Shown here: positions 29,248-63,423 of the stretch, one piece after another | Layout of the letters: each line of letters starts with the position of its first letter | Position numbering within the stretch: position 1 is the stretch's first letter | Source of the DNA: an uncultured Bacteroidales bacterium | Lineage (GTDB): Bacteria; Bacteroidota; Bacteroidia; Bacteroidales; FEN-979 | Direction of reading: 5' to 3' | Assembly: GCA_903824935.1 (NCBI GenBank) | Contig: CAIJYT010000078.1 | Location: 1 to 64,000 of the forward strand | Length of the DNA stretch: 64,000 bases | The notes under the pieces: model-generated | The model's input: only the letters and a program-made list of their open reading frames with translations | What the model was told of the DNA's origin: nothing | Databases searched by the model: none | Position numbers and translations under genes: made by a program

Positions 29248-29249
29248 TT

Positions 29250-29557: not shown

Positions 29558-29568
29558 AAAATTGAGTT

Positions 29569-30351: not shown

Positions 30352-30631
30352 AGTAGATAGAATTTGGTTAAGCCTTTTTTTATCGCATCAAGGCATGGCG
30401 TCCGATTCATAATTCATTGTAAGAACAGGAGGTATTGATGCTTCATTCAGAATCTTTTCTTAATAAACACGGAATTTACCAATGGTTGCCTGGGTAATGA
30501 GAATATAGGTAAAAATAATGCCAAATGTCCTTGTCATCAGTTAAGTAGGTTGATCCTGCAAAATTATTTCGTTCCTTTGTAACACTTGAACTTCCTATGC
30601 GTCATTTTTTAAAACATAATATATTTAGGAC

Positions 30632-33886: not shown

Positions 33887-33971
33887 GCTTTAATCCGGCC
33901 AAGCGGATCTGACTCCTGGTTGCAGAGTTCTTTTTGATTGTGGGTTCCTTTAATTGAATAAATAAAATATG

Positions 33972-37027: not shown

Positions 37028-37037
37028 AACTGAATGT

Positions 37038-38733: not shown

Positions 38734-39441
38734 TTAAGTCAAACAGCTCATTGGTGCGATGAGCAACCGGCTCATCAATTCATCAAGATCTTTTTCTGAC
38801 GGGAAGGCTACAGACAATACCCCGCCCGGGATAGCAACAGAAAGAGCCGTGAACATCCTTAGGTGTTTAAACCGGCACCGGCGGATCAGGCGAGGCTCTT
38901 CAGAAACAGTCTCTATATGATCTGTTTCATACCATTCATGCGGAACCCTGAATCCCAGCCTTATTGCCTTTCCCGCGGCTTCTTTCGCAGTCCAGAGGAC
39001 GTGAAACAACTCAAGCTCATCCTTTTCTTTTCTGCACATCTCCTTCTCCCAATCGCTGAGTACTATGGGTATGATTGTGCGGTTTTTCTCCGTGATGCTT
39101 TCCACATCAACTCCCATCATGAAGGTCAAAGGAAAACACAATCCGGCATTCAGAAAATTACCATGAGCTATTGAGACTCCATACGGCTGCTGAAGGTTGC
39201 TGATATGGGGTTCGCCCAGGCTGCCAGTTGTGATGTGTATTTCAGCAGAAGGAATATCAGGGAATACTTTTTCAATGGCCATTTTTCCTGCTATCCTTCC
39301 GTGAAAGAATGATCTTCTGCGGATATCCGATCCAAAAGCACCCGCGGTTTTTATCTCTTCAGGGTGTAGCATCTGACGAACTTTTTCCCTGAGTTCTTCG
39401 TCGTTGAATGTTGGAAACATTACGAGGCCGGCTGATATCAT
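38734..39441 (-). CDS. Sfp-type 4'-phosphopantetheinyl transferase.
   Basis: Carries GVDVESI and WTAKEAAGKAIRLG (W/FxxKEAxxK). Its ATG at 39441 overlaps the NRPS TGA stop by 4 nt (ATGA). Confidence 0.75.
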   Translation of the reverse strand: MISAGLVMFPTFNDEELREKVRQMLHPEEIKTAGAFGSDIRRRSFFHGRIAGKMAIEKVFPDIPSAEIHITTGSLGEPHISNLQQPYGVSIAHGNFLNAGLCFPLTFMMGVDVESITEKNRTIIPIVLSDWEKEMCRKEKDELELFHVLWTAKEAAGKAIRLGFRVPHEWYETDHIETVSEEPRLIRRCRFKHLRMFTALSVAIPGGVLSVAFPSEKDLDELMSRLLIAPMSCLT

Positions 39442-42400
39442 AATCCCGTATCCCCCCATTTCATCAATGCACGCACCAGTTCCTTCACAAAGGGGCGGGC
39501 AATGACCGAAACATGATTCCCGGGAATATTAACAACCGACAGATCATGCTGGATCCATAGCCCCCAATCCAGATCTGAAGACCTTTCCGGAACCATGGCC
39601 TGCCCGTCAAACGGAGGCAATGCATCCTGGGCCCTGATCAGCAGGGTTTTCCCTTCAAAAGAGCCCGGCCGGCAGGCCGCCGTGATCTCATTATGATAGA
39701 TCATCAGATCGAGATATCCGTGAAAATCGCTGATCTTCATGTCGGGCGGTACAAGGTTGGCCCATATAAACGCTTTAAGAAATACCTCTGACTGGGCTAC
39801 CGGTTCTTTCCCTCTCAGATCTGCGGCGCTTATCCCAAGCGGGCGGCCCACCAGATAGGCTACCTTGCCTGCAAAAGCAAGCATCCGGTCAATAGGATCG
39901 ATGGTAATGGCTGTATATTCAGGTTCCGCTTTAACCGGTGCCATCTGATCAATGATCATCAGCCGGGGGTTTACTCCCGAGGATTCCCCGACCTGTCTTG
40001 CCATCTCAAATGCAATGAGCGCTCCCATAGACCATCCTGCAAATACTACATCATCGATGCAGGTTGGCAGATTGATCTCTTCAAGATAAAAACGGGCCAT
40101 ATCGCTTACGCTGTCAACTTTTTTACCCGACAGTCCCGACGCCTGCAATCCGTAAATCGAATAATCCATTCCCAGCTCCCGGGCCAGCTCATAGTAACAG
40201 AGCACATTGCCGCCGGCCGGATGAACCAGGTACAACTGCTTTTTCCCGTTACCCGGCCTGATCGGGACCAGGGAGGAGGGCTTCTGCTTTAAGCCTGATT
40301 CCCTGAGAAGCTCAGCCAAAGCCATCACGCTCCCCCTTTCGAACAAGGTAGCCAGTGGAAGATGAACATGAAACTCCTTCTCGATTGAAGCAAAAAGCTG
40401 TATTGCAAGAAGGGAATGACCGCCCAGATCGAAAAACCCATCGCCTATACCCAACTCCTGAAGCTTCAGTACTTCTCTGAAAATATTGACCAGCCTGAGC
40501 TCGGTAAGATCACGGGGCGGTGCCAATGAACGGGAAGTTTCATCCCGGGTCCCGGTCATCCGCCTTAATTCCTTAAAATCGGTTTTTCCGTTGGATGTGA
40601 GTGGAAAAAGCTCAATCACATAAAAAACCGAGGGGATCATATATGATGGTAAACGATGTGAAAGCCATTGCCTGAGTTCGTTCTCATCATAAACAAAGCC
40701 CTGTTTCAGACTGATGGCCGCCTGCACTGAACTCACCGAAGAAACGTGTTCAGGAACGAGTACCACAGCCTGTTCAACCGCTATAAATTCATTCAGTACA
40801 TTCTCAATCTCACGGGTTTCTACCCGGTAGCCCCTGATCTTGATCTGATGATCGCTGCGGCCAAGGAAGACAACTGATCCGTCATCCTGCATCCTTCCCA
40901 GATCACCCGTACGGTAAATACGCTCCCCTTTCAGGAAAGGATCGTCAGCAAACTTTTCACTGCTTAGCTGAGGCTGGTTCAGATATCCACGGGAAATATT
41001 ATGTCCACTCAATATGATTTCTCCGGGAATACCTTTCGGGAGGAGCTGAAGATCTTCGCCGGTGATATAAACTGCCGTATTATCGAGCGGAAACCCGATT
41101 GGAAAAATGAGCTGTTCCGGAGCAGGATTAACAGGGATCTCCCAGGTAAGCGAGCCGATAGTGGCTTCAGTGGGACCATAATGGTTAAGGATTCTGAGCA
41201 AAGGAGCGAGGTTTCTGAGCTGTTTGACAATTTCCGCACTGCATTTTTCACCCCCGAGCATCAGCAGTTTATGCGGTAAAAGACTGGCAGCCCGTGATGA
41301 ATGGAGCAGACTCATCATGTGAGAAGGCACGATCTTAAGGCAATCAACCGGCTGGCGATGGAACCAATCGGCCAACAGAGATGCATCGGTCGAATGATCT
41401 TCAGGAATTATCACGACCTCGCCGCCATGGATCAGGGGAGGGAATATCATTGTGTTGCCGAGGTCGGCGGCAATGGATGAAATAGTGGCAAAGGAATCAC
41501 CGGCTTCCATCTTCATCCTCTCCCACACTGCTTTTGAGTAATTAAGCAGCTGGCCGGATCCGATACAAACTCCCTTGGGATTTCCCGTTGTTCCCGAGGT
41601 ATAGATCACATACGACAGTTGATCGCCACCAGGAAGGTCAGGTAAAGTAAGAGTCTCAGAAACCTCATCTCCGGCGATCAGCTTACTGTAAAGAAGGACA
41701 GGAATGCCTGTCCCGGCAAGCCTTTTAGACAACTCCTCTGTGCTGATGGTCCGCTTCAGTGAAGCATCTTGTGCAATAAACTTAAGCCTTTCTTCAGGAA
41801 TACCGCTATCCAGGGGAACATAAGCTCCGCCTGCTTTTAAGATTCCCAGGATAGAAATAATGAGGGATGCCTCGCGGGGAAGAAGTATACCAACCAGATC
41901 TCCCTTTCTTATCCCCTCTTTGGCGAGAGTATTTGCAAGCTGACCGGAAACCATGTCAAGCTCCCGGTAAGTGATCTGCTGGTGGATATCGCGTATGGCT
42001 TTTAAATCGGGTGTTGCCCTGGCCTGTGCCCTGAATTCATCAAGCCAGGAAGCAGGCGAATTCACTCCTGGTTCAGTGTAAACTGAAGGCTTTCCTCTGC
42101 AGAGCGATCGCTGGTCAGCCGGGAACCAGGCCAGCCTGCCGCATGATTCATCGGGATGGCTTATGATGGAGGTCATCAGAATCTTGTAGTTGATCAGCAT
42201 CTTCTGAATCGTCTGACGAAGGAATATCTCGCGTGGATAAGTCACCGAGAGGATCAGCCCCTGGTTCGCCTCCTCAACCCAGAAATTCAGGTCAAACTTG
42301 GAATAGGAATAATCAATGCTCTCGGGTTTCACTACAAGGCCTTTGACGCTGTATAGAGAAGGGATGTTCTGATGTACAAAGTGAACCTGGAAAACAGGGT

Positions 42401-43577
42401 TGGTACTCAGGTTACGGTCGGGTTTTACCTCCTCGATGAGCTTTTCAAAAGGAAGTTCCTGCCTCATAAAAGCCTGCTGGGAATAGGTTTTTATATGATT
42501 CAGAAAGTTTATTGCCGTAAGGTTTTCATCAGTTTTCACCCGCATCGGAAGAGTATTGATAAAAAGCCCCATGGTATTCTGGAACGAAAGCTGATTTCTT
42601 CTTGCAACCGGAACGCCAATCATGATATCCTTTTGACCGCTGTACTTTGACATTAGCAAACCGAAAACTCCGAAAAGCAGATGAAACAGGGTAATATTTT
42701 CGCGCTGGCAGAATTGCCGGAGTTTTTCGGTTTCCGCAGCGTCTATGGCATTAACTTCTTTGCTCCCGTGGTGCGACATTACAGCAGGCCTTTGAAAGTC
42801 TAGCGGCAGGCGCAGGGGTTCAGGCAGTCCGGCTAACTGGGTTTTCCAGAAATCAAGCTGTTCTTTGTAAACGGGAGTGAGCATCCAGTCCTTTTCCCAT
42901 TTCACAAAATCAATATACTGGTATTCCGGGCCGGCGAATGGCATAGGTTCTTTGCTTTCAAGAGCCGCGTAGGTCATCGAAAGTTCTTTTGCAAACAGCG
43001 CATTCGACCATCCATCTGAGATGATATGATGGGGATTGATCAGAAGAATGTATTCCAGATCGTCCAGGTGAAGCACATCGAAACGAAGTAACGGAAGCTG
43101 GCCGAGGGGGATTACGGTTTTCCCGTGTTCGAGAGCCAGGGTCATGGCCTTAGTTTCTTTTTCGTTCAATGGCAGAGTACGGAGATCCCGGTAAATTATC
43201 TCAGGTTTACCGCATGCATGAACATGTTGCACCGGATTTCCGTTCATCACATCGAAGGTAGTTCGAAGGATCTCATGCCGTTCGGTGAGGAGTCCGAGGC
43301 TCTGAGCAAGGATATCGATATTCAGGGGAAACACTGCCGACATCCTGAGGGCGACCGGATTGTTATATATGGCTTCTCCCTCGGTGAGGTTATGAAGGAA
43401 CCACATCCTTTCCTGCGCTTTTGACAAAGGATAGATTCCCCCGGGGTTCCGTTCCATTTTAGGAGGTCTCCCAATCCTCGGGGCTGAATCATCCCTTCCC
43501 TTTCGGAGCAGTGCTTTCAGCTGATCGGGACTTAATCCCGACAGGCGTTCATTCAGTGATTTTTCCTGCTTCGCCAT
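39438..43577 (-). CDS. NRPS termination module: C-A-T-TE (the track ORF extends to 43682; ATG 43577 is the likely start).
   Basis: C domain has LSKAQERMWFL and HHIISDGWS (HHxxxDG). A domain has YTSGTTGNPKG and NYGPTE. T domain has FFDLGGHSLLAIQL. TE domain has GWSMGALIAFEMA (GxSxG). Confidence 0.9.
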   Translation of the reverse strand: MAKQEKSLNERLSGLSPDQLKALLRKGRDDSAPRIGRPPKMERNPGGIYPLSKAQERMWFLHNLTEGEAIYNNPVALRMSAVFPLNIDILAQSLGLLTERHEILRTTFDVMNGNPVQHVHACGKPEIIYRDLRTLPLNEKETKAMTLALEHGKTVIPLGQLPLLRFDVLHLDDLEYILLINPHHIISDGWSNALFAKELSMTYAALESKEPMPFAGPEYQYIDFVKWEKDWMLTPVYKEQLDFWKTQLAGLPEPLRLPLDFQRPAVMSHHGSKEVNAIDAAETEKLRQFCQRENITLFHLLFGVFGLLMSKYSGQKDIMIGVPVARRNQLSFQNTMGLFINTLPMRVKTDENLTAINFLNHIKTYSQQAFMRQELPFEKLIEEVKPDRNLSTNPVFQVHFVHQNIPSLYSVKGLVVKPESIDYSYSKFDLNFWVEEANQGLILSVTYPREIFLRQTIQKMLINYKILMTSIISHPDESCGRLAWFPADQRSLCRGKPSVYTEPGVNSPASWLDEFRAQARATPDLKAIRDIHQQITYRELDMVSGQLANTLAKEGIRKGDLVGILLPREASLIISILGILKAGGAYVPLDSGIPEERLKFIAQDASLKRTISTEELSKRLAGTGIPVLLYSKLIAGDEVSETLTLPDLPGGDQLSYVIYTSGTTGNPKGVCIGSGQLLNYSKAVWERMKMEAGDSFATISSIAADLGNTMIFPPLIHGGEVVIIPEDHSTDASLLADWFHRQPVDCLKIVPSHMMSLLHSSRAASLLPHKLLMLGGEKCSAEIVKQLRNLAPLLRILNHYGPTEATIGSLTWEIPVNPAPEQLIFPIGFPLDNTAVYITGEDLQLLPKGIPGEIILSGHNISRGYLNQPQLSSEKFADDPFLKGERIYRTGDLGRMQDDGSVVFLGRSDHQIKIRGYRVETREIENVLNEFIAVEQAVVLVPEHVSSVSSVQAAISLKQGFVYDENELRQWLSHRLPSYMIPSVFYVIELFPLTSNGKTDFKELRRMTGTRDETSRSLAPPRDLTELRLVNIFREVLKLQELGIGDGFFDLGGHSLLAIQLFASIEKEFHVHLPLATLFERGSVMALAELLRESGLKQKPSSLVPIRPGNGKKQLYLVHPAGGNVLCYYELARELGMDYSIYGLQASGLSGKKVDSVSDMARFYLEEINLPTCIDDVVFAGWSMGALIAFEMARQVGESSGVNPRLMIIDQMAPVKAEPEYTAITIDPIDRMLAFAGKVAYLVGRPLGISAADLRGKEPVAQSEVFLKAFIWANLVPPDMKISDFHGYLDLMIYHNEITAACRPGSFEGKTLLIRAQDALPPFDGQAMVPERSSDLDWGLWIQHDLSVVNIPGNHVSVIARPFVKELVRALMKWGDTGL

Positions 43578-43588: not shown

Positions 43589-44734
43589 TCAGGGGTAAGT
43601 AAGGACCAGCTTCCCAATATGTTTTGAGCGCGACATGGCAGTGAGAGCTTCTTTTAGCTGTCGGACAGGGTAGGTCACGCAAGGAATCGGTTTAAAAAGC
43701 CCGGAATTGAAAAGCCCGGCGATTTCCGTGAGCTGTTCTTTCAGCCTGCGCGGCTGTACCAGGTACAACGAAATATCGAGTACCGAAAAAGTGATCCCTT
43801 TGCTGAATATGCCCATCGGCAGAAGGGTGTTCTTCGCGATATCCTTTTTATCGATCTGAATAAACCGGCCAAAGGGTGCAAGTATCTCCAATCCTTTCAT
43901 CATGCCATCTCCCGAAAGAGTATTCAAAACGACATCGACTCCCCTGCCCCTGGTCAGTTTCATGATTTCTTCGCCAAATAAAACGGACCTTGAATCCATC
44001 GGATGAACGATTCCTCTTTTTATAAGGAATTCCCTCTTCTCTGGTGATCCTGCCGTTGCATATATCCCTGCCTTCCTCCATTCTGCAATTTCCAGAGCGG
44101 CAAGGCCCACTCCGCCGGTAGCTGTATGGATCAGTACCGATTCGCCTTCAGCAATATTTGCCAGACGTATCAGGCCTGAGAATGCCGTGAGGAAAACCGT
44201 GGGGACCGCGGCTGCTTCTTCAAAGCTCAGTCCATGAGGTTTTGGTACAACCTGCAGTTGTGAAAGGTTGAAAACATTGATGAAATGGCTCCCAGGCTGC
44301 ACTTTCCCGTCGATGAAAGTGCCCGCCGACAAGGCAATTACCTCATCTCCTTCTTTGATCCCACTCACTCCGGGGCCCACACGGGTAACTACCCCGGCAT
44401 AATCGGAACCCATATTGGAAGGGACCCCGGGAGCCTCTGGGTATTGTCCCATGGCAATCATCAGGTCGCGGTAGTTCAGGCTTGCTGCAAGGGCTTTCAC
44501 CTGTACATAGCCTTCGGGAGGATCAGCGGCCTTTGCTTCCCTGAAGCTGATATTCAATGAACCGGGATTACCGGGATCGCAGGAAAAACAATCCGGCAGT
44601 TGTAACTCTTCCTTTTCCGGTTTATTCTGATTCCCGGCGCCCTTCGCAGAAGCATAGCCAAGACGTTTCAACAGCATCTCCTTCTGCTCAGGCGACAAAC
44701 CTGCAATTTTTTTCAGAAGTTCATCATTGTTCAT
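43589..44734 (-). CDS. Discrete (trans-acting) PKS-type enoyl reductase, MDR superfamily.
   Basis: Motifs VKALAASLNYRDLMIAMGQYP (PKS-ER LNFRD-type) and HTATGGVGLAALEIA (NADPH-binding), plus an N-terminal ~60-aa extension. Confidence 0.75.
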   Translation of the reverse strand: MNNDELLKKIAGLSPEQKEMLLKRLGYASAKGAGNQNKPEKEELQLPDCFSCDPGNPGSLNISFREAKAADPPEGYVQVKALAASLNYRDLMIAMGQYPEAPGVPSNMGSDYAGVVTRVGPGVSGIKEGDEVIALSAGTFIDGKVQPGSHFINVFNLSQLQVVPKPHGLSFEEAAAVPTVFLTAFSGLIRLANIAEGESVLIHTATGGVGLAALEIAEWRKAGIYATAGSPEKREFLIKRGIVHPMDSRSVLFGEEIMKLTRGRGVDVVLNTLSGDGMMKGLEILAPFGRFIQIDKKDIAKNTLLPMGIFSKGITFSVLDISLYLVQPRRLKEQLTEIAGLFNSGLFKPIPCVTYPVRQLKEALTAMSRSKHIGKLVLTYP

Positions 44735-47700
44735 CTTCCATCTCTTTCAGCAATGCTTCAATTTCATCGGATCCTTTCGCGGCAATGATCATTTCGACGA
44801 TCCTGTCGGATAATCCTTTCACGGTCGGATTTTCGAAAAATACGTTCGGCTGGAGTTCAAGGTCAAACTCATCCGCAATATTAGATATTGTTTGTATTGC
44901 CAGCAGCGAATTTCCCCCGAGTTCCATAAAGGTATCATTCACTCCTATCTTGTCAATGCCCAGAATTCCTTTCCAGATTTCGGCCACTGCAATTTCGATC
45001 TCGGTCGATGGAGCCTCAAAAACAGTAGATAACTGCGGCCGCTCATAAGTAGATGCATTTCCTTTCTTCTCTTCTTCCTTTTCCAGTTTTTCCTTTTTTT
45101 TGTATGAAGGTCTTTCCTCAAGGATGTCCTGGTTCAGGTCGGTTGTGTTGACTATGATCTGGGGGAACTGCTTATAATTGAGAAGGCGTTTAAACACTTC
45201 AATGCCCTCATCGGGGAGTATGTCATTTTTTCCGGCTAAGGAGATGGTTTCCTGGACAGGTTTCGGCGCTGCATCTTTTGACATCGAACTTTTATATCCG
45301 CCGAGATTCTGTTGCAGCCGGCGGAATGAAACCTGATCGATGCTTACAAGCAGGCGGTTTTCCAAATCCAGAAGCTTTACTTCAAATTTCAATTCTTCAT
45401 CCCCCGGTTTCCATTCATCACTGATTCTGAGATAGCACCAAAAACAGGCTGGAAGAGGATTATGCACCCGAATATTTTTATATGAATACGGGAGATACAG
45501 ATTCATGTCGACATATTGTATACAGCTTGATGTGGCTACATCAAGCATGGCCGGATGAAGAGTGAAATAGTTCAGGTCATCAAGAAACTCATCCCTTAAT
45601 TTGATTTCAATGAGGAATTCCTTGCCGTTGTATTGGGCCGACTTCTTGCAATCCCAACGGTTACTGTATTTTAAAACGGACCTGTTTTCTTCATTCATCA
45701 ATTCCAGGAAATGAGGTATGTGGTCGGTCTTTCCTCCGATTTGTTTTGAAAGCACCTCAATGTTGATACTTGCGGAAGGCAATTCTGCGACTATCCTGAA
45801 TTCCCCTTTAACATGATCCATCCATATCTCCCGGGCAGATTCGCCTTTTAATTCCTTACTGCTTATGCGGAATGCCCATGCATCGCCCGAAGGCTTGACC
45901 ATTAAACGCAGATTCCTGCGGATCCCTTCGTCATAAATAAGTGGAGTGACGAATGAAAAGTTCAGGACTTCAAGATGACCAGCCGGATTTTTGATTTTGG
46001 CATAGAGGTTGAGGATCTCCAGGGTGGAAATCCCCAGAAATGCAGGCTTCCCCGACAGGAGGTGAGAGCTTAACACCCAGTCGCGTTCGGGATCAAGGTC
46101 GAGCTGATAAATATCCTGATCCTGATCTGATGACTGAAATACCAGCCTTATGCCGTTCCTGGTTTCTGTTTGTTTTAATGCCTTGCCCGATTGTAACAGC
46201 TGTTTTTTCTCGGCTTTGGTTTTCTCCCAGCTGGCGGCCATGCCAACGATTCCCCATTGGGCCCAGTTAACTGAAAGCGTGCCATCGCCGGTTAACCCTT
46301 TGCGGTACTGTGCAAAAGAATCCATAAAGGCGTTGGAACCACAATAGTCAATCCTGGCTGCTTCTCCGAAAATCGAAGAAACAGAAGAAAACAGGAAGAA
46401 GAAATCGAGCTTCCTGTCTTTGAAAATATCATGCAGAATGAGCGTTCCGTTTAATTTGGAGTTCAGCACGAGCTCGGCTTGTTCTTTATCTTTAAGTGCG
46501 ATGACGCCACCTCCGGGCATGCCGGCCGAATGCAGCACCCCGCAGAATGGTCCGGATTCCTTCTCAATATCAGTTACGAGCTTCCTGGTTCCTTCATAAT
46601 CGGAAGCATCCAATTGGGCAAGAATCACCTTTGAGCCCAGTGATTCCAGCTCCGCAAGATCCCTTACCCGGCTTGCAGCTGAGTCATCAGGTCCTGTAGC
46701 TTCAACAATCGATGCCCATTCGCCGCGGGGTGGCAAGGATGAACGATGAGTGAGTACCAGAGTAGCTTTTACCGTGCGGGCTATAAATTTGGCAAGTTCC
46801 ATCCCGATTCCGCTTACGCCGCCAGTGATCAGGTAAACTCCATGATTGGCCAGGGAGTTCTCTGCAAGCACTCCGTTTTCAGCACATATTGGAGTATAAT
46901 CTTCAACCCAGCGGTAGCCATTACGGTAAGCGGCAATGGTGTCATCAGTTGCCAGGCGGCATTCGTTGATCACAGCAGAACCCAATTCTTTCAATTGTTC
47001 AGAGTCCGAAGCAGAGGGAAGATCAACCAGGCGGGCAATGAATCCGGGATGTTCCTGTCCGATAACGCGTGCAGCACCCACAGCCAGGGCCTTTTCAGGG
47101 GAGAGAACCACCTGGCCGGTAACATCATACAGATGATTTATTACAAAAAGTAAAAATTGGTTTTTCACAAATCCTTCACTGATGAGGGCTTGCTCAAGGT
47201 ATAAAGGTCCGTAGAAATTATCTGTGGCAAGTTGCCCGGCATGAAGCGGGTGAAGATGTCCCGAATGAGGTTTCTGGGAGTAATTCCAGGCATAGATAAT
47301 ATTATTGGGCTTACGGTCTTCTGATTTAATCGTATTTATTAACCGGGAAAAATGCTCCTTGCACGTGGGATCAATACTATAATTGTCTTTCTCGTGAATG
47401 AATTCATTTCCTTTTTTTACGTTCAGGCAGGGAATGCCTGTTTCATTCAGTTTGCTGCGAATCGCCTCGCAAAGGCCCTCCTCATCTTCAAACAGAAGCC
47501 AGCATGCTTTTTCGGAACTTTCTTCAGCTGAAGCCATGCCGTTAATCGGAATAAGTTGCGGAGGGGCCGATCTTTTCCATCCGGGAATATAAAACCATTG
47601 ATTGATATCGGGTTTCTTTTTGTTTTCCGGTTTGGCTTTGTCGGCGTTATTATGCGAAAAGTCGATCTTATAGGGTTTTCGTTCAAAGGGATAACCCGGG

Positions 47701-50306
47701 TATGAGATGAGTTTTCTCTTGCTTTTATCAAATAGCTCCCAGTTGAAATAATCTCCGCCGGCCCAGATCTGGCCAAGGGCCGAATAGAAATAGATCAAAG
47801 GATCGGCTTTATAATCCAATGCAGGTATCGTGCTGATGACCCCGTGCCCGCTGTCTTTTGCAAGTTGGCGTTTTACGGCCGATTCGAGTGACTGGCCGGG
47901 GCCTGATTCAACGAAAACGGCCAGAGCTGTATCCATACAGAGTACAGCTGCATCTGCAAAGCGTACGGTCTTGCGTACATGCTTCACCCAGAAATCGGGA
48001 TTGGTAGATTCTTCAGCGCTTAACCAATGCCCTGTAACTGTGGATGCGATGGGGATTGCAGGCGCTGAAAGCCTTATCTCTTTGAAAAATTCAGCAAATG
48101 CAGGCAACATGGGCTCCATCATAGCCGAATGGAAAGCGTGCGAAGTGGGAATCTTCTTATTAAATATTTTTGTTTTGTTCAGTTCAGCGGCAAACCGGTC
48201 AATAATATCCTCAGGCCCTGAAGCGACGCATAATCCGGGACTGTTTACAACGGCAATCTCAAGTCCTTCAGGAAGCATAAATCCCAGCTGTTGCTCGGTA
48301 AGCAGAATTGCAAGCATCGCCCCTCCCGGAAGGTCCTGAACAAGACGGCCCCTGCGGGCCACTGCTTTCAGCGCATCGTTAAGAGAAAACACACCTGAAA
48401 TAGCTGCTGCCACATATTCGCCAACACTATGACCGATAAGCATGTCGGGCTCCAGGCCCAGCGACATTAAAAGCTTTGCCTGGGCATAACTCACTATAAA
48501 CAGCGCCGGCTGGGTGATATACGTTTCATTTATCTTTATGGCAGCCATTTCTTCATCGGCAGCGGAAGGGAACAATACAGTCCGGATATCAAACCCCAGC
48601 TCCTCCTTAAGAATTTCCGCACATTTATCAATGGTATTCCTGAACACTTCCTGTGTCTTGTACAATGGCAGACCCATATTGATATATTGATTTCCCTGTC
48701 CCGGGAACATAAACACCAGCGGTCTTTTTGCGGATGATTTGACTGTTGTGGCAGTCTTCGCACCAAGACCTGCAAGTAATTCCTCCCTGTCGCGGAAAGG
48801 TATCGCTGCTCCATTCAGAAACTGATGCCTGCCATATCGCGAGGTATAAGCTATGTCGTGAGGATCAACCTCAGGAAATGATTCGAGAAAAGATTTGATC
48901 TCTGCCTGAGCAGCAGCAACGGCTTCCTTGCTGCGCCCGGAAACGAGCAGCAGGTCACAGGGGAGTTCCCGTATTTCTGTTTTAAGAGATGGTGGTTCCT
49001 CCAGAACTAAGCAGGCATTGGTTCCACCAACGCCAAAAGCATTCACCAGAGCACGAAGGGGGGCGCCGTTTTCAGGTTTCCACTCCCTGAGCGCCGTATT
49101 GACAAAGAACGGGCTATTGGGAAAATCAATTTTCGGATTTGCCTCATTGAAATGCAGGGAGGCAGGGATCTTTCTGGTCTTAAGGCATAGTGCGGTTTTA
49201 ATCAGACTGGCTGCGCCAGATGCGATATCGGTATGGCCGATGTTGGTTTTTACTGAACCGATAGCACAATATTGTTTGCGATCAGAATGCTGCCTGAATG
49301 CTTCCGAGAGGGATGCGACTTCAATGGGATCGCCGATAGGTGTAGCAGTTCCATGAGCTTCAACATAGGTTATAGAATCGGCCGAGATCTCTGATAACCC
49401 CAGGGCTTCGGTGATGACTTCCACCTGCCCTTCGACAGAAGGGGCAGTAAATCCCACTTTCTTGTTCCCGTCATTATTGATAGCGCCACCGAGAATAACG
49501 GCATAAATGTTATTGTTGTCACGAATAGCGTCTTCAAGGCGTTTGAGTATAACTATCCCGCAACCCCTGCTAAACACGGTCCCGTTGGCATCCTTGTCGA
49601 ACGTCCGGCAATGCCCGTCGGCCGATTCCATTCCTCCGGCCTGGTAAGGATATCCATGTTTCTCGGGTAATTCGATCGTGGCTCCCCCGGCAATGATCAT
49701 ATCGCACTGATAATTCATCAGGCTGTTGATCCCTGTGACCACTGCTACCAATGAAGTGGAACAAGCGCTCTGGACATCGAAACTCGGTCCTGTCAGATTC
49801 AGTTTATATGATACCCTTGTAGTGACGTAGTCCTTGTCGTTGCTGGTAACAATGGATGCTCCGCTGGCATTTTTTCTTACCCATTGATTCTCCATGGTCT
49901 GTATCAGATGCAGAGGCGTTCCAGTACCACCGAAAACCCCGATACGTTCTCTGGTATTATATGGGTCACAACCGGCATCTTCCAGAGCATGCCAGGCACA
50001 TTCCAGAAAAATGCGCTGCTGGGGATCCATCAGCTCAGCTTCCCGGGGTGTAAATCCGAAAAATTCCGCGTCGAAATACTCTGCTCCATTGATAATGCCC
50101 CTGTTCCTGATATAATTGGGTTGTTTAAACACTGCCGGGTCAACACCAGATGCAATCAGCTCCTCATCTGTAAAAGTGCTCAAGGTTTCCACTCCGTTCA
50201 GGAGGTTTTTCCAATATTCATAGATATTTATTGCCCCGGGGAGCCGGCAGGCCATGCCAATAATTGCAACTTTACCTTCCAGGTTTTTTACTTCATCTGT
50301 TTGCAT
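44724..50306 (-). CDS. Type I PKS module: KS-AT(malonyl)-KR-DH-like-carrier protein (the track ORF extends to 50486; ATG 50306 lies 13 nt after the upstream NRPS stop).
   Basis: KS has VAIIGMACRLPG, GPSFDVQSACSTSL (Cys), EAHGTATPIGD and NIGHT. AT has GHSVGEY with HAFHS (malonyl-type). KR has GGVSGIG...YCGSNAFMD. DH-like region has LSSHLLSGKP ... HPAMLDVATS. The C-terminal carrier has FMELGGNSLLAIQ. Confidence 0.9.
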   Translation of the reverse strand: MQTDEVKNLEGKVAIIGMACRLPGAINIYEYWKNLLNGVETLSTFTDEELIASGVDPAVFKQPNYIRNRGIINGAEYFDAEFFGFTPREAELMDPQQRIFLECAWHALEDAGCDPYNTRERIGVFGGTGTPLHLIQTMENQWVRKNASGASIVTSNDKDYVTTRVSYKLNLTGPSFDVQSACSTSLVAVVTGINSLMNYQCDMIIAGGATIELPEKHGYPYQAGGMESADGHCRTFDKDANGTVFSRGCGIVILKRLEDAIRDNNNIYAVILGGAINNDGNKKVGFTAPSVEGQVEVITEALGLSEISADSITYVEAHGTATPIGDPIEVASLSEAFRQHSDRKQYCAIGSVKTNIGHTDIASGAASLIKTALCLKTRKIPASLHFNEANPKIDFPNSPFFVNTALREWKPENGAPLRALVNAFGVGGTNACLVLEEPPSLKTEIRELPCDLLLVSGRSKEAVAAAQAEIKSFLESFPEVDPHDIAYTSRYGRHQFLNGAAIPFRDREELLAGLGAKTATTVKSSAKRPLVFMFPGQGNQYINMGLPLYKTQEVFRNTIDKCAEILKEELGFDIRTVLFPSAADEEMAAIKINETYITQPALFIVSYAQAKLLMSLGLEPDMLIGHSVGEYVAAAISGVFSLNDALKAVARRGRLVQDLPGGAMLAILLTEQQLGFMLPEGLEIAVVNSPGLCVASGPEDIIDRFAAELNKTKIFNKKIPTSHAFHSAMMEPMLPAFAEFFKEIRLSAPAIPIASTVTGHWLSAEESTNPDFWVKHVRKTVRFADAAVLCMDTALAVFVESGPGQSLESAVKRQLAKDSGHGVISTIPALDYKADPLIYFYSALGQIWAGGDYFNWELFDKSKRKLISYPGYPFERKPYKIDFSHNNADKAKPENKKKPDINQWFYIPGWKRSAPPQLIPINGMASAEESSEKACWLLFEDEEGLCEAIRSKLNETGIPCLNVKKGNEFIHEKDNYSIDPTCKEHFSRLINTIKSEDRKPNNIIYAWNYSQKPHSGHLHPLHAGQLATDNFYGPLYLEQALISEGFVKNQFLLFVINHLYDVTGQVVLSPEKALAVGAARVIGQEHPGFIARLVDLPSASDSEQLKELGSAVINECRLATDDTIAAYRNGYRWVEDYTPICAENGVLAENSLANHGVYLITGGVSGIGMELAKFIARTVKATLVLTHRSSLPPRGEWASIVEATGPDDSAASRVRDLAELESLGSKVILAQLDASDYEGTRKLVTDIEKESGPFCGVLHSAGMPGGGVIALKDKEQAELVLNSKLNGTLILHDIFKDRKLDFFFLFSSVSSIFGEAARIDYCGSNAFMDSFAQYRKGLTGDGTLSVNWAQWGIVGMAASWEKTKAEKKQLLQSGKALKQTETRNGIRLVFQSSDQDQDIYQLDLDPERDWVLSSHLLSGKPAFLGISTLEILNLYAKIKNPAGHLEVLNFSFVTPLIYDEGIRRNLRLMVKPSGDAWAFRISSKELKGESAREIWMDHVKGEFRIVAELPSASINIEVLSKQIGGKTDHIPHFLELMNEENRSVLKYSNRWDCKKSAQYNGKEFLIEIKLRDEFLDDLNYFTLHPAMLDVATSSCIQYVDMNLYLPYSYKNIRVHNPLPACFWCYLRISDEWKPGDEELKFEVKLLDLENRLLVSIDQVSFRRLQQNLGGYKSSMSKDAAPKPVQETISLAGKNDILPDEGIEVFKRLLNYKQFPQIIVNTTDLNQDILEERPSYKKKEKLEKEEEKKGNASTYERPQLSTVFEAPSTEIEIAVAEIWKGILGIDKIGVNDTFMELGGNSLLAIQTISNIADEFDLELQPNVFFENPTVKGLSDRIVEMIIAAKGSDEIEALLKEMEDEQ

Positions 50307-50319
50307 AAGTTGTAGTTTT

Positions 50320-53300
50320 TCAAGGTTGATTGTTATCTGGAGTAATTCGTTTTCTGTTCTGTTGTTTGATGTTCCTGTTACGCATCGCAACACGTTTTTC
50401 GACATCGATGTATGGATGAACCGGTTTGTCCTTGCGTAGAAATGCTGCCAGGCTTCGGATCGTGGGATAATGAAACAAGTCGACAATACTGACTTCTTCT
50501 TTTAACTTTTCAGCGATCAGCTCTTTAAGTCTGACAAGCAGCAATGAATGCCCTCCTACTTCAAAGAAATTATCATGTGGAGTGAATGCCCCATGATCGA
50601 GTATCTCTTTCCAGAGCTCGATAAGTGAGGCCTCTGTTTCATTTATATGCCGGTGAATGAATTCCGGGACATCAGGCACCGAGGGTCTTAGATTTATCAG
50701 TGCTTTAAAATCGGTCTTACCGTTCGGCAGCGTTGGAATAGCAGGGGCTATAATGAAATGGCCAGGGATCATATAGGCAGGAAGATGAAGACGCAGAAAT
50801 TCTCTCAAATCCTTTTCATTTAATGATGCTGAAGGTTCCTGAACTATATACGCTGTAAGGCGGATGTCTTCTTCCCCATGCTCCCGCGCATAAACCACAA
50901 CCCCTCTTACTGCCGGGAAACGGAGAATGTTCGATTCGACCTCTCCCAGCTCGATCCGGAAGCCCCTCACTTTTACCTGATGGTCAGTCCTGCCCAGGAA
51001 TTCTACCGAGCCGTCATACATATACCTCCCCAGATCTCCGGTTTTATAGATCCTGCTTCCCTTGCCTTGTAAAAAGGGATCCTGAAGAAACCTGGAATCC
51101 GTTTGAGCCTTATCTTCGAAATATCCATCGGCAAGTACTTTCCCCCCCAGATATATCTCCCCGGTCACTCCAACCGGAACAGGTTCCAGCTTTTCATCCA
51201 GGATATAAAAAGCTGCATTGTAAATGGGAAACCCGATAGGAACCATTCTGAGAGGACTGTTACGCCGGCAATGCCAGCAAGCCATGTAAACCGTTGCTTC
51301 TGTCGGGCCATAGAGGTTGATCAATACACCTTCCGATTCACTGAATATCTGCTCCTGCAGTGATCGTGAAAGCTTCTCTCCCCCCGAAATAATGTTTTTC
51401 AGAAATCTGGCTCGCCTTAGGACCCCGGCATCACACAAGGCTTTCAGGCCCGAAGGGACAAACTGTACCGTGTTCACCTTCATCTCGTTTAAGAGGGCCT
51501 CGATTTTTTCAGGAGCCTGAAGCTCGCTTCGTTTCTCAAGCACCAGGCTGGCTCCGCTGATCAGGGGAGTGAAAAGCTCGAGAAAAGAAATGTCAAAATT
51601 GATGGATGTTGTTGAAAGGAAGGTATCAGAGGAGGAGATCTTCAGCTCCGTCTTCATCCACACCATGAAATTAAGAAGACTGTCGTGGCGTATCATCACG
51701 CCTTTTGGATTTCCTGTTGAACCGGAAGTGAACATGATATATGCAAGATTCCCGGGAATATCCGGTTCAACGCCTGCGAGCGGTTTCAGCTGGAAAGATT
51801 CATTAAGCAGTTCGCTCACAGGAATATTTTGTTCCGACAATTCCCGCTTCCAGCTCATATGCTCTTCATCAACAATAAGGAAGCGTACTCTGGTCTTTTC
51901 AATAACATATCGCAACCTTTCGTCGGGATAATACGGATCAAGGGGGATATATATGCCTCCGGCTCTAAATACGGCCATGATGCACATTACCATGTTCGGG
52001 GAGTTTTCAAGATGAATCCCGACCGGCACCCCGTTTCTCACACCCAAACGCCGCAGATTTCCGGTAATGACTTCGGTGCGCCTGGCCATTTCCCTGTAGG
52101 TGATCACTTCCTGCCTTGATACCAGTGCAGGCACACCAGGAGTGATCTCTGCCTGCCGGCAAACCATGTCAGCCACGTTTCCATTGAACTGATTTTCATA
52201 AGTAGTCTCATTCCATTTATAAACGAGCAGGTTACGTTCTTCCTGGGAAATAAGGTTTATTGCATGTATCCTGGTTGCAGGGGAAACACTGATTTCTTCC
52301 AGAATCTGAATGAAATGATCAAGGAGTATCTCAATGGTTCCGGGGTGATACAACCGGGATGAAAATGTTAGGACTATTTCGGCTGTGTCTCCGATATCGA
52401 AGATCTCGGAAAAAATATCGAATTTGGACCGGCCAAAGAATTCTTCCCTGGCAAAGCCGCTGAGGCCCGTATGGGTTGAAAACTTCCAGTCTGTTTCGTG
52501 GTAGGCGAACATGATCTGAAAAAACGGATTGATTCCCGGGATCCTATCAGTTTTCAGCACTTCTCCCGCACGGGTAAATGGAAACCTGGAATGCTCAAGT
52601 CCTTCAAGAATCTGATTCCTTAATAATCCCATCCAATCTCTGAAAGCCATGCCGGGATCGATGTTTGTCCTCACCAGCATGGTATTTACGAAATAACCAA
52701 TCAACGATAAATATGATTTATTAAGCCGGTTTGAAACAGGAGTCCCGATAAGGATATCCTTGCGCCCGGTATGACGGAAAAGGAGAATCGAGAAAGCGCC
52801 CAAACAGGTCATAAACATGCTGGCTCCCATATCATCGCTAAGGCTCTTCAATCTGGATTTAAGCAAAGGATGGATCGTTCTCCGGGCCTGGCCTCCTTCA
52901 TGTGTGGGGAGCTCCGGACGTGTATAATCAGTCGGGAGCTCGAAAAAAGTAGGGGCATTCGCAAGCTGTTTTTGCCAGTACGATCTGTCGGTTTCATATT
53001 GCAGGCTACTCATGTATATTTTCTCTTCACTGCAAAACTGAGAATAGGATGCTAACGGGACCTGGAGAAAGGAATCATTACCCTTATGCGCCTGATCATA
53101 GAACTTCGAAAGCTGATTTAAAAAGATCCTGAATGAGAACCCGTCGAAAACACTATGATGAACAATAAAAGCGAGCAGATGCCGGTCGTCATCAAGTCGG
53201 TACAGAATAAACCGGAAGGGTTTTCCCTGCTCTAAAGTGAAAGGACGGTCGGCCATACCACGGGCATGATCAAGGGCCGTGTTCAGGGAAACAGCCTGAG

Positions 53301-55410
53301 CTCCGGTTTGTGATCTGAATACCTCCAGGACATTTTTCTCCGAACCCGGATTCACTTCAACGCACTGATTGCCATTTCCCGGCATTATTTTGCGCAGCGC
53401 TTGTTCCAGGCTTACAATGTCGGGCGAACCTGTAAGCAGGATACTGTAAAAAATATTATAGGCCGAAAGGCCAGGTTCAATTTGCTGGAGAAACCAGAGG
53501 GCTTTCTGGTTTTCCGATAAACCTGTTTGAAAGATGTCGTTTGACAAAGCTTCACGGGACTGATTTTGCTGTGACGCCATTTTGACCGTTGCCTGTTCGT
53601 TATCTGTGGCCCATTCTTTGTTTCGGTCCGATTCATCAAATATCTGAAGCCTTGCCAGTGCGCCGGGAGCAGGGTAGTCGAAAATGTGTCTGATTTGCAG
53701 ATCAATGCCTGTTTTCGCCCTGACATCCAAAACAATAGCGCCAGCTTTCAATGAATTACCGCCCAGGTCAAAGAAGTTATCATCCAAACCGATACCTTCG
53801 AGCCCAAGCACTTCTTCCCAGGTCCGGACTATCATTTTTTCGTTGGTAGTCGTGGGCGGCACTGCAGGATAACCTAAATCGGGCCGCTGAATTCCGGGAA
53901 GTGGAAGTGATTTGCGGTCAATCTTTCCATTTGGGAGTTGCGGAAGATGATCGAGTGTGATAAAAACCTCAGGTATCATATAATCAGGCAGGACGTGTAA
54001 CAGGATTTTACGCAGCTGGTCTACCGGCACTGAGTTGCCGGTTTTGAAAACCAGGTAGGCAACCAGTCGTTTCCCGTTTTGCTTCTCATCCACAACTTTT
54101 ACAATTGCCTGTTTCACCTCCGGGATGACAATAAGGGCAAGTTCGATTTCAGAAAGTTCGATACGAAACCCGCGTATTTTAACCTGTTGGTCTTTACGTC
54201 CGATAAAAATCAGTCTGCCCGATTGATCCTGCTTCACCAGATCGCCGGAGCGATAAACATTGATTGCCTCCTCTCCATTGAGTTTGAACGAAAAAAAAGT
54301 GGTCCCTGTGATTTCGGGCAGGTTCAGATAGCCCCTTGCAATGCCATCTCCGCTGGCAAGAAGTTCACCGGCAACGCCCTGGTCAACAGGATTCATGTCA
54401 TCGCCGACAATAAAAATAGTCGTTCCGTGAAGCGGTTTGCCGATATGGGCCGGTTCGCCGGGATATAACCTTGCTGCAGTAAGGTTTGCGGTTGCTTCTG
54501 TTGGGCCGTAAAGATTCCAAAGCTGAAGAGAAGGTAAAGTGCTGAAGCTTCTTTTCAGAAGATCATCTGTAACAGCTTCTCCCGAAAGATAAACACATGA
54601 GGGCGCCGACGATCTGATGTTTATACCCTCTGGGGTGTCTAAATAGTTTAAGATTTCAGACCAAAGCGTCGGTACACAGTATAAACCCATTCCCGGATGT
54701 GCTGAATACCATTGAAGCAGTTTTTCGGGTTGCCTTATTACCAAAGGATCAAGGATATGAAGGGTTTTTCCTGCCAGTAAGGTTGAAAAAAACTGCGTTA
54801 CAGCTGCCGCGAAAATAAAAGAGGATGTCAAGGGTAATGCGACCTGGCTTTCAGGCATTACCCATTGGCAAAACCAGTGGACATAATAATTCAGGTTTCG
54901 CTGTTCAATCATGACCCCTTTTGGATTGCCGGTGGAACCGGATGTGTACAGTATATAGGCAAGATCAGAAGCCTGAACCGGCTTAGCTTTTGGAATTCTT
55001 GTATTGGTAAGATTCTTCACTTCAGGCCAATCAGGAATGAATATTGGAGTTTGCCCGAAAGCCGGTATGTGCGATAATGAATTGTCGGTGATAACAAGCC
55101 TGGCGTCTGCATCCTTAAGAATATACCTGATCCGTTCTTCAGGAAAATTCGAAGAAAGAGGGATATAGGCAGCTCCGGATTTGAGCAAAGCAATAATCGA
55201 AATGGCAAGGTTAACTGAGGGGTATAAATTAATCCCGACCACACAGCCTGGGCCTATTCCCCATTCCTGTAACTGCCATGCCAGATTGGAGGAGAACTGA
55301 TCAAGCCTGCTGAAACTAATGCATTCATCCCGACAGATAATGGCTTCTGCATCAGGAAAAGCTTCCGATCTGAGAAAGATCTCCTCATGTATTGGAATAA
55401 ATCTGCTCAT
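50320..55410 (-). CDS. NRPS initiation + elongation module: A-T-C-A-T.
   Basis: A1 has YTSGSTGNPKGVMIEQ. T1 has FFDLGGNSLKAG. C has NQKALWFLQQ and IVHHSVFDGFS (HHxxxDG). A2 has FTSGSTGNPKGVMIRH and SINFDISFLE. T2 has FFEVGGHSLLLVRL. Confidence 0.9.
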   Translation of the reverse strand: MSRFIPIHEEIFLRSEAFPDAEAIICRDECISFSRLDQFSSNLAWQLQEWGIGPGCVVGINLYPSVNLAISIIALLKSGAAYIPLSSNFPEERIRYILKDADARLVITDNSLSHIPAFGQTPIFIPDWPEVKNLTNTRIPKAKPVQASDLAYILYTSGSTGNPKGVMIEQRNLNYYVHWFCQWVMPESQVALPLTSSFIFAAAVTQFFSTLLAGKTLHILDPLVIRQPEKLLQWYSAHPGMGLYCVPTLWSEILNYLDTPEGINIRSSAPSCVYLSGEAVTDDLLKRSFSTLPSLQLWNLYGPTEATANLTAARLYPGEPAHIGKPLHGTTIFIVGDDMNPVDQGVAGELLASGDGIARGYLNLPEITGTTFFSFKLNGEEAINVYRSGDLVKQDQSGRLIFIGRKDQQVKIRGFRIELSEIELALIVIPEVKQAIVKVVDEKQNGKRLVAYLVFKTGNSVPVDQLRKILLHVLPDYMIPEVFITLDHLPQLPNGKIDRKSLPLPGIQRPDLGYPAVPPTTTNEKMIVRTWEEVLGLEGIGLDDNFFDLGGNSLKAGAIVLDVRAKTGIDLQIRHIFDYPAPGALARLQIFDESDRNKEWATDNEQATVKMASQQNQSREALSNDIFQTGLSENQKALWFLQQIEPGLSAYNIFYSILLTGSPDIVSLEQALRKIMPGNGNQCVEVNPGSEKNVLEVFRSQTGAQAVSLNTALDHARGMADRPFTLEQGKPFRFILYRLDDDRHLLAFIVHHSVFDGFSFRIFLNQLSKFYDQAHKGNDSFLQVPLASYSQFCSEEKIYMSSLQYETDRSYWQKQLANAPTFFELPTDYTRPELPTHEGGQARRTIHPLLKSRLKSLSDDMGASMFMTCLGAFSILLFRHTGRKDILIGTPVSNRLNKSYLSLIGYFVNTMLVRTNIDPGMAFRDWMGLLRNQILEGLEHSRFPFTRAGEVLKTDRIPGINPFFQIMFAYHETDWKFSTHTGLSGFAREEFFGRSKFDIFSEIFDIGDTAEIVLTFSSRLYHPGTIEILLDHFIQILEEISVSPATRIHAINLISQEERNLLVYKWNETTYENQFNGNVADMVCRQAEITPGVPALVSRQEVITYREMARRTEVITGNLRRLGVRNGVPVGIHLENSPNMVMCIMAVFRAGGIYIPLDPYYPDERLRYVIEKTRVRFLIVDEEHMSWKRELSEQNIPVSELLNESFQLKPLAGVEPDIPGNLAYIMFTSGSTGNPKGVMIRHDSLLNFMVWMKTELKISSSDTFLSTTSINFDISFLELFTPLISGASLVLEKRSELQAPEKIEALLNEMKVNTVQFVPSGLKALCDAGVLRRARFLKNIISGGEKLSRSLQEQIFSESEGVLINLYGPTEATVYMACWHCRRNSPLRMVPIGFPIYNAAFYILDEKLEPVPVGVTGEIYLGGKVLADGYFEDKAQTDSRFLQDPFLQGKGSRIYKTGDLGRYMYDGSVEFLGRTDHQVKVRGFRIELGEVESNILRFPAVRGVVVYAREHGEEDIRLTAYIVQEPSASLNEKDLREFLRLHLPAYMIPGHFIIAPAIPTLPNGKTDFKALINLRPSVPDVPEFIHRHINETEASLIELWKEILDHGAFTPHDNFFEVGGHSLLLVRLKELIAEKLKEEVSIVDLFHYPTIRSLAAFLRKDKPVHPYIDVEKRVAMRNRNIKQQNRKRITPDNNQP

Positions 55411-56978: not shown

Positions 56979-57000
56979 TTATTAATCCTGTTAAACGATT

Positions 57001-59925: not shown

Positions 59926-59926
59926 A

Positions 59927-62098: not shown

Positions 62099-62127
62099 AA
62101 CTAGGCTCGATTGATTGGTATGGAGTA

Positions 62128-63378: not shown

Positions 63379-63423
63379 AATAAAATATATTGCTGGTAAC
63401 AAAAAACCTGCAAAGGCGGGTTG

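Follow-up and report, generated by a model that had tools for sequence, protein, structure and literature searches.

A polyketide synthase (PKS) gene at positions 44724..50306 of a 64,000-nucleotide stretch of DNA from an uncultured Bacteroidales bacterium (contig CAIJYT010000078.1; the whole stretch is here called the window) raises the question of what kind of enzyme it encodes, as its ketoreductase (KR) is followed by a dehydratase (DH)-like region and the gene stands amid genes of nonribosomal peptide synthetases (NRPSs). In the polyunsaturated fatty acid (PUFA) synthase PfaA, in HglE, and in the enediyne synthase PKSE, the KR also precedes the DH in the primary sequence, and an earlier reading of the window from its letters alone (the sequence-only reading) had placed the gene beside these enzymes. 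Judged by its sequence, the PKS belongs to another group, the atypical KR-DH didomain class of hybrid PKS/NRPS modules, of which ClbB of the colibactin pathway is the best-known member: KR and then DH are present in one polypeptide, the module is embedded between NRPS modules, and the DH has a His-Asp dyad of predicted activity. We consider it probable that the gene encodes one fully reducing extension module of a hybrid NRPS-PKS-NRPS line. All features described below lie on the minus strand unless the plus strand is named.

The gene, whose coordinates are exactly those of the sequence-only reading, encodes 1860 amino acids. The mechanical open reading frame (ORF) spans 44724-50486, and the ATG at 50306, 14 nt past the stop of the upstream NRPS gene, is the start that is kept in all orthologs. 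According to the ORF, this conserved ATG, Pfam, and the orthologs, the protein is organized as ketosynthase (KS), acyltransferase (AT), structural (KRs) and catalytic (KRc) subdomains of the KR, DH, a KR tail, a carrier, and a docking tail. The KS (residues 12-436, 48999..50273; Pfam E 9e-69 and 5e-40) possesses Cys182, His317, and His358. The AT (residues 531-823, 47838..48716; Pfam 2e-54) has both GHSVGE at 625 and HAFH at 723 intact, the signature that by rule denotes malonyl-type specificity. The KR prefix and the KR structural subdomain together cover residues 903-1105 (46992..47600), with the prefix at 903-992 (NCBIfam NF047870, 2.5e-20) and the structural subdomain at 937-1105 (Pfam PF21394, 3e-13). 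The KR catalytic subdomain extends through a lid helix (residues 1156-1374, 46185..46841), as delimited by the Pfam match at 1156-1351 (PF08659, 5e-41), the alignment with the PksJ KR (4j1q), and a helix in the AlphaFold model. Its catalytic features are intact, including the NADPH site GGVSGIG at 1162, Lys1284, a Ser at about 1307, and Tyr1321 within YCGSNAF (1321). Between AT and KR (residues 824-936), there is nothing but the post-AT linker and the KR prefix, so the DH placement of canonical cis-AT modules is absent. Pfam found a sole PP-binding domain (1774-1836), no ACPS or phosphopantetheinyl transferase (PPTase) domain, and no enoylreductase (ER) domain within the protein, which thus has no cis-ER of the ClbB type. 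The order KS, AT, KR, DH-like region, and carrier, the malonyl-type AT, and the position of the KR before the DH (Pfam KR 1156-1351, then DH 1391-1666), as read earlier from the letters, are all confirmed, and every motif quoted for them was located.

Two side aspects of the KR may be added. The best Foldseek match of the KR model was 6ulw, a KR from an NRPS module that selects a keto acid, and the PksJ KR, the best sequence match of the window KR, reportedly reduces an alpha-keto starter.

The region after the KR is a genuine double-hotdog DH with a His/Asp dyad, as judged by sequence and model, and is predicted to be catalytic (residues 1388-1670, 45297..46145). Pfam recognized PKS_DH_N at 1391-1483, albeit below the cut-off (8e-4), and PS-DH at 1545-1666 (4e-11). 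The catalytic residues are His1415 (nt 46062-46064) in WVLSSH1415LLSGKP, with LSSHLLSGKP beginning at 1412, and Asp1589 (nt 45540-45542) in HPAMLD1589, with HPAMLDVATS beginning at 1584. Both are kept in 20 of 20 aligned homologs from Bacteroidota and Gammaproteobacteria. A phmmer search of solved structures matched the PksJ DH (1e-9 across 258 residues) and also the dehydratases of CurJ, CurK, CurH, and GphF. In an AlphaFold model of residues 901-1860 of the PKS, the segment 1388-1663 had a pLDDT of 83-95 and the strand and helix pattern of a double hotdog, and Foldseek with this part returned 7zmf (TM 0.81) and CurJ 5tz6 (TM 0.81, rmsd 3.3 A). A protein search with the DH alone gave close fragments only. 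The DH-like fold with catalytic His and Asp that had been proposed from the letters is therefore borne out by Pfam PS-DH, structure matches, model, and conserved dyad. The sequence-only reading had also considered that the region after the KR might be a part of the KR instead of a DH; a true DH does follow the KR, but a 33-residue piece after this DH turned out to be the KR's own helix-strand element.

This piece (residues 1693-1725, NDILPDEGIEVFKRLLNYKQFPQIIVNTTDL, 45132..45230) indicates, at the level of the sequence, that the DH interrupts the KR after its lid helix and ahead of its last helix-strand. Residues 1375-1693 were deleted in silico, and the resulting chimera was searched against solved structures. 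Its best match was the PksJ KR 4j1q (E 1e-35), in an alignment that crossed the artificial junction unbroken and in which NDILPDEGIEVFKRLLNYKQFPQIIVNTTDL fell on the last helix-strand of the PksJ KR crystal construct. The post-DH tail piece (about 33-40 residues) also matched the segment that precedes the carrier in ordinary KS-AT-KR-carrier proteins. In relatives with a cis-ER (P0177 and P0230), the tail comes only after the ER, in the order KRc-DH-ER-tail-carrier, so that the DH-ER pair of these relatives occupies, by sequence, the same insertion site in the KR. In the AlphaFold model, the lid helix (1356-1373; model residues 456-473) immediately precedes the DH, and the tail consists of a helix (1698-1710) and a strand (1716-1720). 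The chimera, the pre-carrier match, the two cis-ER relatives, and the model thus all lead to the topology KRs-KRc (to the lid)-[DH]-KR helix/strand-carrier, in which the tail may pack onto the KR. We also considered that the post-DH segment was a remnant of the C-terminus of a deleted ER. This was rejected, as the discrete ER encoded downstream is complete (it ends with HIGKLVLTYP), as solved KRs end in a stretch that aligns with the segment, and as the segment occurs in ER-less KS-AT-KR-carrier proteins.

The ER is encoded by a gene of its own (43589..44734, 381 aa), in line with the earlier view that this function comes from outside the PKS: a complete ER of the medium-chain dehydrogenase/reductase (MDR) type lies downstream, and none was found in the PKS. 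Its ATG overlaps the stop of the PKS gene by 11 nt. Structure matches, motifs, and model agree on the assignment. The best matches in the PDB were cis PKS ER domains (MAS 8.5e-62, SpnB, CurK, CurF, and JamJ), and the LNYRD and GGVGLAA motifs of PKS-type MDR enoylreductases are both present. Among the gathered sequences, cis ERs of KR-DH-ER modules, where they directly follow the DH, were the closest (38-41% identity), and the ER domain of ClbB was 35% identical (E 7e-52). In the model (pLDDT 88), residues 3-24 (nt about 44663-44728) form two short N-terminal helices, which a disordered linker (26-40) connects to the core (about 50-381). In the databases, 1,001 proteins passed E 1e-20 as relatives of the ER. 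Among the best 120 of these 1,001, which are the basis of the following figures, all had 298-393 aa except for one 220-aa fragment, 115 of the 120 fell within 365-395 aa, and no other PKS or NRPS domain was found in any of them; about 35 were at least 69% identical to the window ER, and most others 45-53%.

An N-terminal motif, L-x-x-x-I-A-x-L-S-P-E-K-R-A-L-L, is kept through the ER family, and the N-terminus of the downstream NRPS, LSGLSPDQLKALL, resembles this motif both here and in other lineages. It may be that the ER is recruited via a docking helix akin to the one at the start of the downstream NRPS, and that it acts on the enoyl intermediate of this module. As a side observation, the common opening motif of the ER (44660-44734) and of the downstream NRPS (43400-43577) can be written as (L)xxLSP(E/D)(Q/K)xxxLL; it is kept in distant lineages (L027 and L029), and the corresponding NRPS of ER-less gammaproteobacterial clusters shows it as LKSLKLDELKRL.

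The carrier (residues 1760-1845, 44772..45029) had been described as similar to the peptidyl carrier proteins (PCPs) of NRPSs, and this description stands on several kinds of matches. The Pfam PP-binding domain (1774-1836, 1e-14) contains GGNSLL at 1797, the core motif DTFMELGGNSLLAI, and the phosphopantetheine-accepting Ser1800 (nt 44907-44909); a GGxS core is combined with an upstream (D/N)xFFxLGG context, as in NRPS-type PCPs. All of the 25 best PDB matches were NRPS PCPs (PvdL 6e-23, LgrA, PaxA, and TycC among them), the first PKS carrier appeared only at 1e-8, and the NCBIfam matches were all NRPS models. This carrier type is not peculiar to the module of the window, since GG(H/D/N)SL was found in about 50 related KS-AT-KR-carrier PKSs of the match list, and such carriers are probably the rule in PKS modules whose chain goes on to a condensation (C) domain. 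The protein ends with an acidic helix (GSDEIEALLKEMEDEQ, 44727..44771), a putative docking element whose ExLExLL ending is kept in homologs from Bacteroidota and Gammaproteobacteria. Carrier and tail align with PaxA T1-CDD along its length, although a common docking type could not be confirmed.

The module is indeed embedded between NRPS modules, as had been noted. The upstream NRPS (50320..55410) has the Pfam domain order A-PCP-C-A-PCP (A, adenylation domain), and the downstream NRPS (39438..43577, with a probable start ATG at 43577) the order C-A-PCP-TE (TE, thioesterase). In the first A domain (A1), the specificity code, obtained like the others by motif anchoring, is AATYYSLAN, without Asp235, and this code is conserved in gammaproteobacterial clusters. 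As Asp235, the residue that binds the alpha-amino group, is missing, the starter should not be an alpha-amino acid and may instead be a keto acid, a hydroxy acid, or another non-amino acid. The second A domain (A2) has the code DILQIGLVY, which is Gly-like and close to what we take to be the Gly code (DILQLGLIWK), and the third (A3), in the downstream NRPS, has DLTKMGHIG, which is Asp-like and close to the presumed Asp code (DLTKVGHIGK). Separately, A1 (53611-55410) has FAAAV instead of FDxS, and this is the same across Bacteroidota and Gammaproteobacteria.

The arrangement is widely conserved. PKS orthologs with 74-93% identity were found in 10 metagenome-assembled genomes (MAGs) of Bacteroidales/Bacteroidota with identical gene order, and the order NRPS-PKS-ER-NRPS-PPTase was present in 10 of the 10 Bacteroidota MAG loci of sufficient length. 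Two distant ER relatives that were looked up, in Pseudotenacibaculum and in metagenome contigs, lie in the same five-gene core, beside PKSs of the same KS-AT-KRs-KRc-DH-tail-carrier layout. Full-length PKS homologs with 41-42% identity occur in Shewanella, Pectobacterium, Xenorhabdus, and Atlantibacter, in clusters that keep the same logic (A-PCP-C, A-PCP, PKS, and C-A-PCP-TE). The NRPS-embedded placement of the module is kept in all homologous loci. When KRc, DH, and tail were used for a HMMER search of the full library, 4,448 proteins were found at E < 1e-30; KRc was directly followed by DH in 53 of the best 150 cluster representatives, most of which had the same layout of about 1850 aa or were fused to C and A domains. 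In the gammaproteobacterial clusters (L010-L016, L019, L021, and L022), the codes of A1 and of the last module are the same, and that of A2 differs (DVWQFGLIF); these clusters contain a methyltransferase and an MFS transporter in addition. A literature search for the Xenorhabdus, Pectobacterium, or Shewanella homologs yielded no characterised product.

Taken as one fully reducing extension module, the PKS would act as follows. The upstream A-PCP-C-A-PCP enzyme would build an acyl-aminoacyl thioester, in which the starter is presumably not an alpha-amino acid and the second residue is probably Gly. The KS would take over this thioester, and the AT would load malonate onto the C-terminal carrier. 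After condensation, the KR would reduce the beta-keto group, and the DH would dehydrate the product with His1415 and Asp1589. The separate ER, which is probably recruited by its N-terminal helical element on the flexible linker (motif L-x-x-L-S-P-E-K/Q-x-x-L-L), would then saturate the enoyl thioester to a gamma-amino acid unit, which would be 4-aminobutyryl if the second residue is Gly; this step resembles the one by which ClbB turns Ala into 4-aminopentanoyl. Finally, the C domain of the C-A(Asp-like)-PCP-TE enzyme would receive the chain from the PCP-like carrier, and this enzyme would add the last residue and release the product. The A-domain codes thus point to an acyl-Gly that is converted to acyl-4-aminobutyryl via KR, DH, and ER and then passed to Asp, with substrates, action of the ER on this module, docking mechanism, and product all being predictions.

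Among the other explanations, the one that survives best is that KR and DH carry out non-canonical chemistry, such as an isomerisation, an epimerisation at the alpha-carbon, or a second elimination. KR-DH modules install the 4-amido-2,4-pentadienoate (APD) diene in BE-43547 and rakicidin, a KR-DH module is associated with L-to-D Arg inversion in rhabdobranin, the authors of a recent survey of DH domains expect such functions in uncharacterised clades, and the DH motifs of the window are degenerate. Nevertheless, we regard it as unlikely, as ClbB, which is colinear and has a related ER, performs plain full reduction, as the predicted Gly substrate offers neither a stereocentre nor a beta-leaving group, and as a dedicated, conserved, and translationally coupled ER argues that an enoyl intermediate is made and then reduced.

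Less likely again, and improbable in our judgement, is that the 381-aa reductase serves elsewhere, be it in tailoring, as a housekeeping enzyme similar to quinone oxidoreductases, or in the reduction of an alpha-keto starter from A1. MDR enzymes are versatile, A1 without Asp235 could well select a keto acid, and the gammaproteobacterial clusters do without the ER. However, the closest solved relatives are cis PKS ERs, with E values of 1e-43 to 1e-62 and well ahead of quinone reductases, and the closest gathered relatives are ER domains right after the DH in KR-DH-ER modules. Moreover, the position between the PKS and the second NRPS, with overlapping or abutting frames, is invariant over lineages at 45-50% identity, and MDR ERs are established to reduce C=C bonds and not alpha-keto groups.

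That the PKS is an iterative enzyme of the PUFA-synthase, HglE, or enediyne-PKSE lineage that happens to lie amid NRPS genes, the kinship drawn by the sequence-only reading from the KR-before-DH order and to which a sub-threshold match of the PfaA model TIGR02813 could be added, is hardly credible: the match reached 345 bits against a cut-off of 1010 and came mostly from the KS, the C-terminal half gave only the KR (40 bits) and nothing on the DH, the single carrier is C-terminal with none separating AT from KR, the protein lacks a PPTase domain, the ER of the window is MDR-type and not PfaD/FMN-type (FMN, flavin mononucleotide), single modules with C and A domains fused to them or on their flanks are the nearest relatives, ClbB aligns in a colinear manner, and the nearest solved KR and DH come from PksJ and Cur proteins.

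Several observations weigh against the nested KR-DH module and the canonical, fully reducing role that we prefer for it. The KR tail is modeled with only moderate confidence (pLDDT 50-67), and its counterpart in ClbB was not detected by hidden Markov models (HMMs), including an iterated one; a candidate piece picked by eye after the ER of ClbB carries no weight as evidence. Both the LDD and the Trp motif are missing from the KR, which leaves no basis for a call on its stereochemistry. In the DH, HxxxGxxxxP ends with Leu instead of Pro, DxxxQ/H ends with Ser, and the GYxYGPxF motif reads KYSNRW. Neither the C-terminal helix of the PKS nor the N-terminal one of the ER found more than chance-level matches in the PDB, and the A-domain codes were obtained by motif anchoring and comparison with literature codes. 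No ER was found within 10 kb in the gammaproteobacterial homolog clusters, which implies that the module as such can do without the ER. Finally, as KR-DH modules elsewhere act in non-canonical ways (double dehydration to APD, a proposed L-to-D epimerisation in rhabdobranin), a purely canonical role is an assumption.

The remaining genes of the locus complete the picture of the cluster. On the minus strand, the order is HlyD, ABC with C39 peptidase, second ABC, OEP, NRPS, PKS, the 381-aa ER, NRPS, and PPTase. The PPTase (38734..39459), assigned by Pfam and synteny, is the last gene of the conserved core. The exporter genes (OEP, ABC, ABC with C39 peptidase, and HlyD; 55449..63402) were recognized by Pfam, and OEP and both ABC genes are kept in 9 of the 9 MAG loci with enough upstream sequence, with HlyD lying beyond the fetched flanks. 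The second ABC transporter has 974 aa, and the C39 peptidase domain is N-terminal on the other one. Exporters of the C39 peptidase type usually go with leader-peptide bacteriocins and not with NRPS products.

On the other side, two radical-SAM genes (542 and 554 aa; 35399-38678, plus strand, in a stretch of low GC, 38-40%) adjoin the PPTase gene, with a TylF-like methyltransferase next to them (33972-35045). The radical-SAM pair is missing from orthologous MAG loci: two of these (L004 and L007) go straight to an S41 protease, and another (L002) retains only the TylF gene at that spot. A distant cluster relative (L029) has a B12-radical-SAM gene and methyltransferases after the second NRPS. With the radical-SAM pair so patchy and other such genes in L029, tailoring genes may be variable add-ons. 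The window has a tricorn-like S41 protease of 1084 aa with PD40 repeats at 30632-33886 (plus strand), whose ortholog is the gene right after the PPTase in L004 and L007, and this protease marks the ancestral cluster boundary on the PPTase side. Unrelated to the cluster, an alpha-2-macroglobulin (1855 aa) and then a PBP1C-type penicillin-binding protein (803 aa) are encoded at 10429-18409 on the plus strand; A2M-Pbp1C is a classic gene pair.

The KR-DH configuration as such is already known and has recently been noticed for its links to warhead formation and cryptic epimerisation. The variant features here are the free ER with its putative docking helix in a widespread family of Bacteroidota clusters, and the sequence evidence for a DH within a KR. 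Tentatively, these may be combined into one proposal, to which we would grant somewhat less than an even chance: a nested KR-DH reducing loop, a released docking-helix ER, and a five-gene core, kept in many Bacteroidota both uncultured and cultured, that makes a small acyl-(4-aminobutyryl)-Asp-type metabolite, of which the ER-less gammaproteobacteria would make the unsaturated (vinylogous) analogue. If this is true, the KR-DH class would have a distinct reducing-loop topology, with DH or DH-ER nested beside the substrate groove of the KR, and in a large Bacteroidota-centred family, the ER would have been freed from this nest and given a docking helix that mimics the one of the downstream NRPS. 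The cluster of the window is a compact and widely conserved five-gene representative of the class, and Bacteroidota and Gammaproteobacteria offer a natural pair with and without ER for probing the function of the didomain. A DH that is an insertion in the KR also bears on the choice of cut sites when such modules are engineered, and a detachable ER that brings its own docking helix might serve as a portable "saturation" part in the design of NRPS/PKS lines. These findings refine the current understanding and overturn none of it.

Among the closest known systems is the PKS module of ClbB from E. coli. It has the order KS-AT-KR-DH-ER-T and forms 4-aminopentanoate from Ala and malonate (PMC5490422). 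For the comparison, clbB was taken from the pks island of E. coli CFT073, where it is frameshifted, and the intact C-terminal ORF of 1352 aa was used; a blastn search of KS-AT DNA against E. coli genomes gave no match. In the CFT073 RefSeq entry (L026, 24280-33901), the frameshift lies at the end of the AT and leaves ORFs at 28283-33910 and 24280-28338. On the ORF used, Pfam located KR at 340-511, DH at 547-799, ER at 850-1142, and PP at 1246-1307, and BLASTP aligned the KR-DH of the window with it in a colinear manner over 611 residues (20% identity, E 2e-16). Both modules follow an NRPS module, have the same KS-AT-KR-DH order, and employ an MDR ER of the same type, and the DH motifs of ClbB (DWLLDEHRISG and LHPALLDIASS) are very similar to those of the window; ClbB fully reduces an aminoacyl-malonate adduct to a gamma-amino acid, as we propose here. 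In contrast, the ER of ClbB is in cis between DH and carrier, the module is fused to its NRPS module, the carrier has LGATSL where the window has GGNSL, the KS-AT identity is only about 42%, and the pathway is a separate one that leads to a prodrug genotoxin.

A survey of 220,645 DH domains counted 10,327 KR-DH against 186,303 DH-KR didomains; 2,354 of the KR-DH didomains were in PKS/NRPS hybrids and formed seven clades, with known products in the APD-lipodepsipeptide clade alone, and the authors expect non-canonical functions in the uncharacterised ones (PMC13110770, 2026 Angewandte). A preprint reported that the DH dyad of a KR-DH module is essential for APD formation and linked the KR-DH module of rhabdobranin to Arg inversion, with L-to-D proposed (bioRxiv 10.64898/2026.09.17.752105). 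Survey and preprint together describe a recognised configuration that is rare, at about 5% of DH domains, and for the most part uncharacterised. The APD-lipodepsipeptide module (rakicidin, BE-43547, and microtermolide; clade I) is also single, cis-AT, and NRPS-flanked with KR before DH, but it is actinobacterial, receives Ser, makes the APD warhead, and has no ER, whereas the module of the window has an ER as its partner and Gly as its predicted incoming residue. The rhabdobranin line (rdb, Xenorhabdus) is likewise a hybrid with a KR-DH arrangement, but it belongs to an N-acyl-D-Asn prodrug pathway with a ClbP-like peptidase. The two Xenorhabdus loci among our homologs (L015, from Xenorhabdus bovienii, and L016) begin with an A domain, show no such peptidase, and differ in layout from rdb.

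PksJ of the bacillaene pathway provides the closest solved KR (4j1q, E 1e-35) and DH (8qk4, 1e-9) to the PKS of the window, and its upstream logic is alike, with a non-amino-acid starter, then Gly, and then a reducing PKS module. In contrast to the window, PksJ (A-PCP-C-A-PCP-KS-DH-KR-ACP..., ACP being an acyl carrier protein) is trans-AT, has the DH before the KR, contains tandem ACPs, and has no ER. PfaA, HglE, and PKSE differ by carriers between AT and KR, iterative action, and an FMN-type ER (PfaD) or a PPTase domain. With trans-acting ERs such as the fungal LovC and the FMN-type PksE and DfnA of trans-AT PKSs, the ER of the window has in common that it is free-standing and would serve a PKS without an ER of its own. 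It is, however, nearer to bacterial cis ERs than to LovC (the trans-acting ER 9mc1 matched only at 2e-12), it is not FMN-type, and it differs from LovC, PksE, and DfnA by the N-terminal helical element on a linker, whose motif it has in common with the downstream NRPS.

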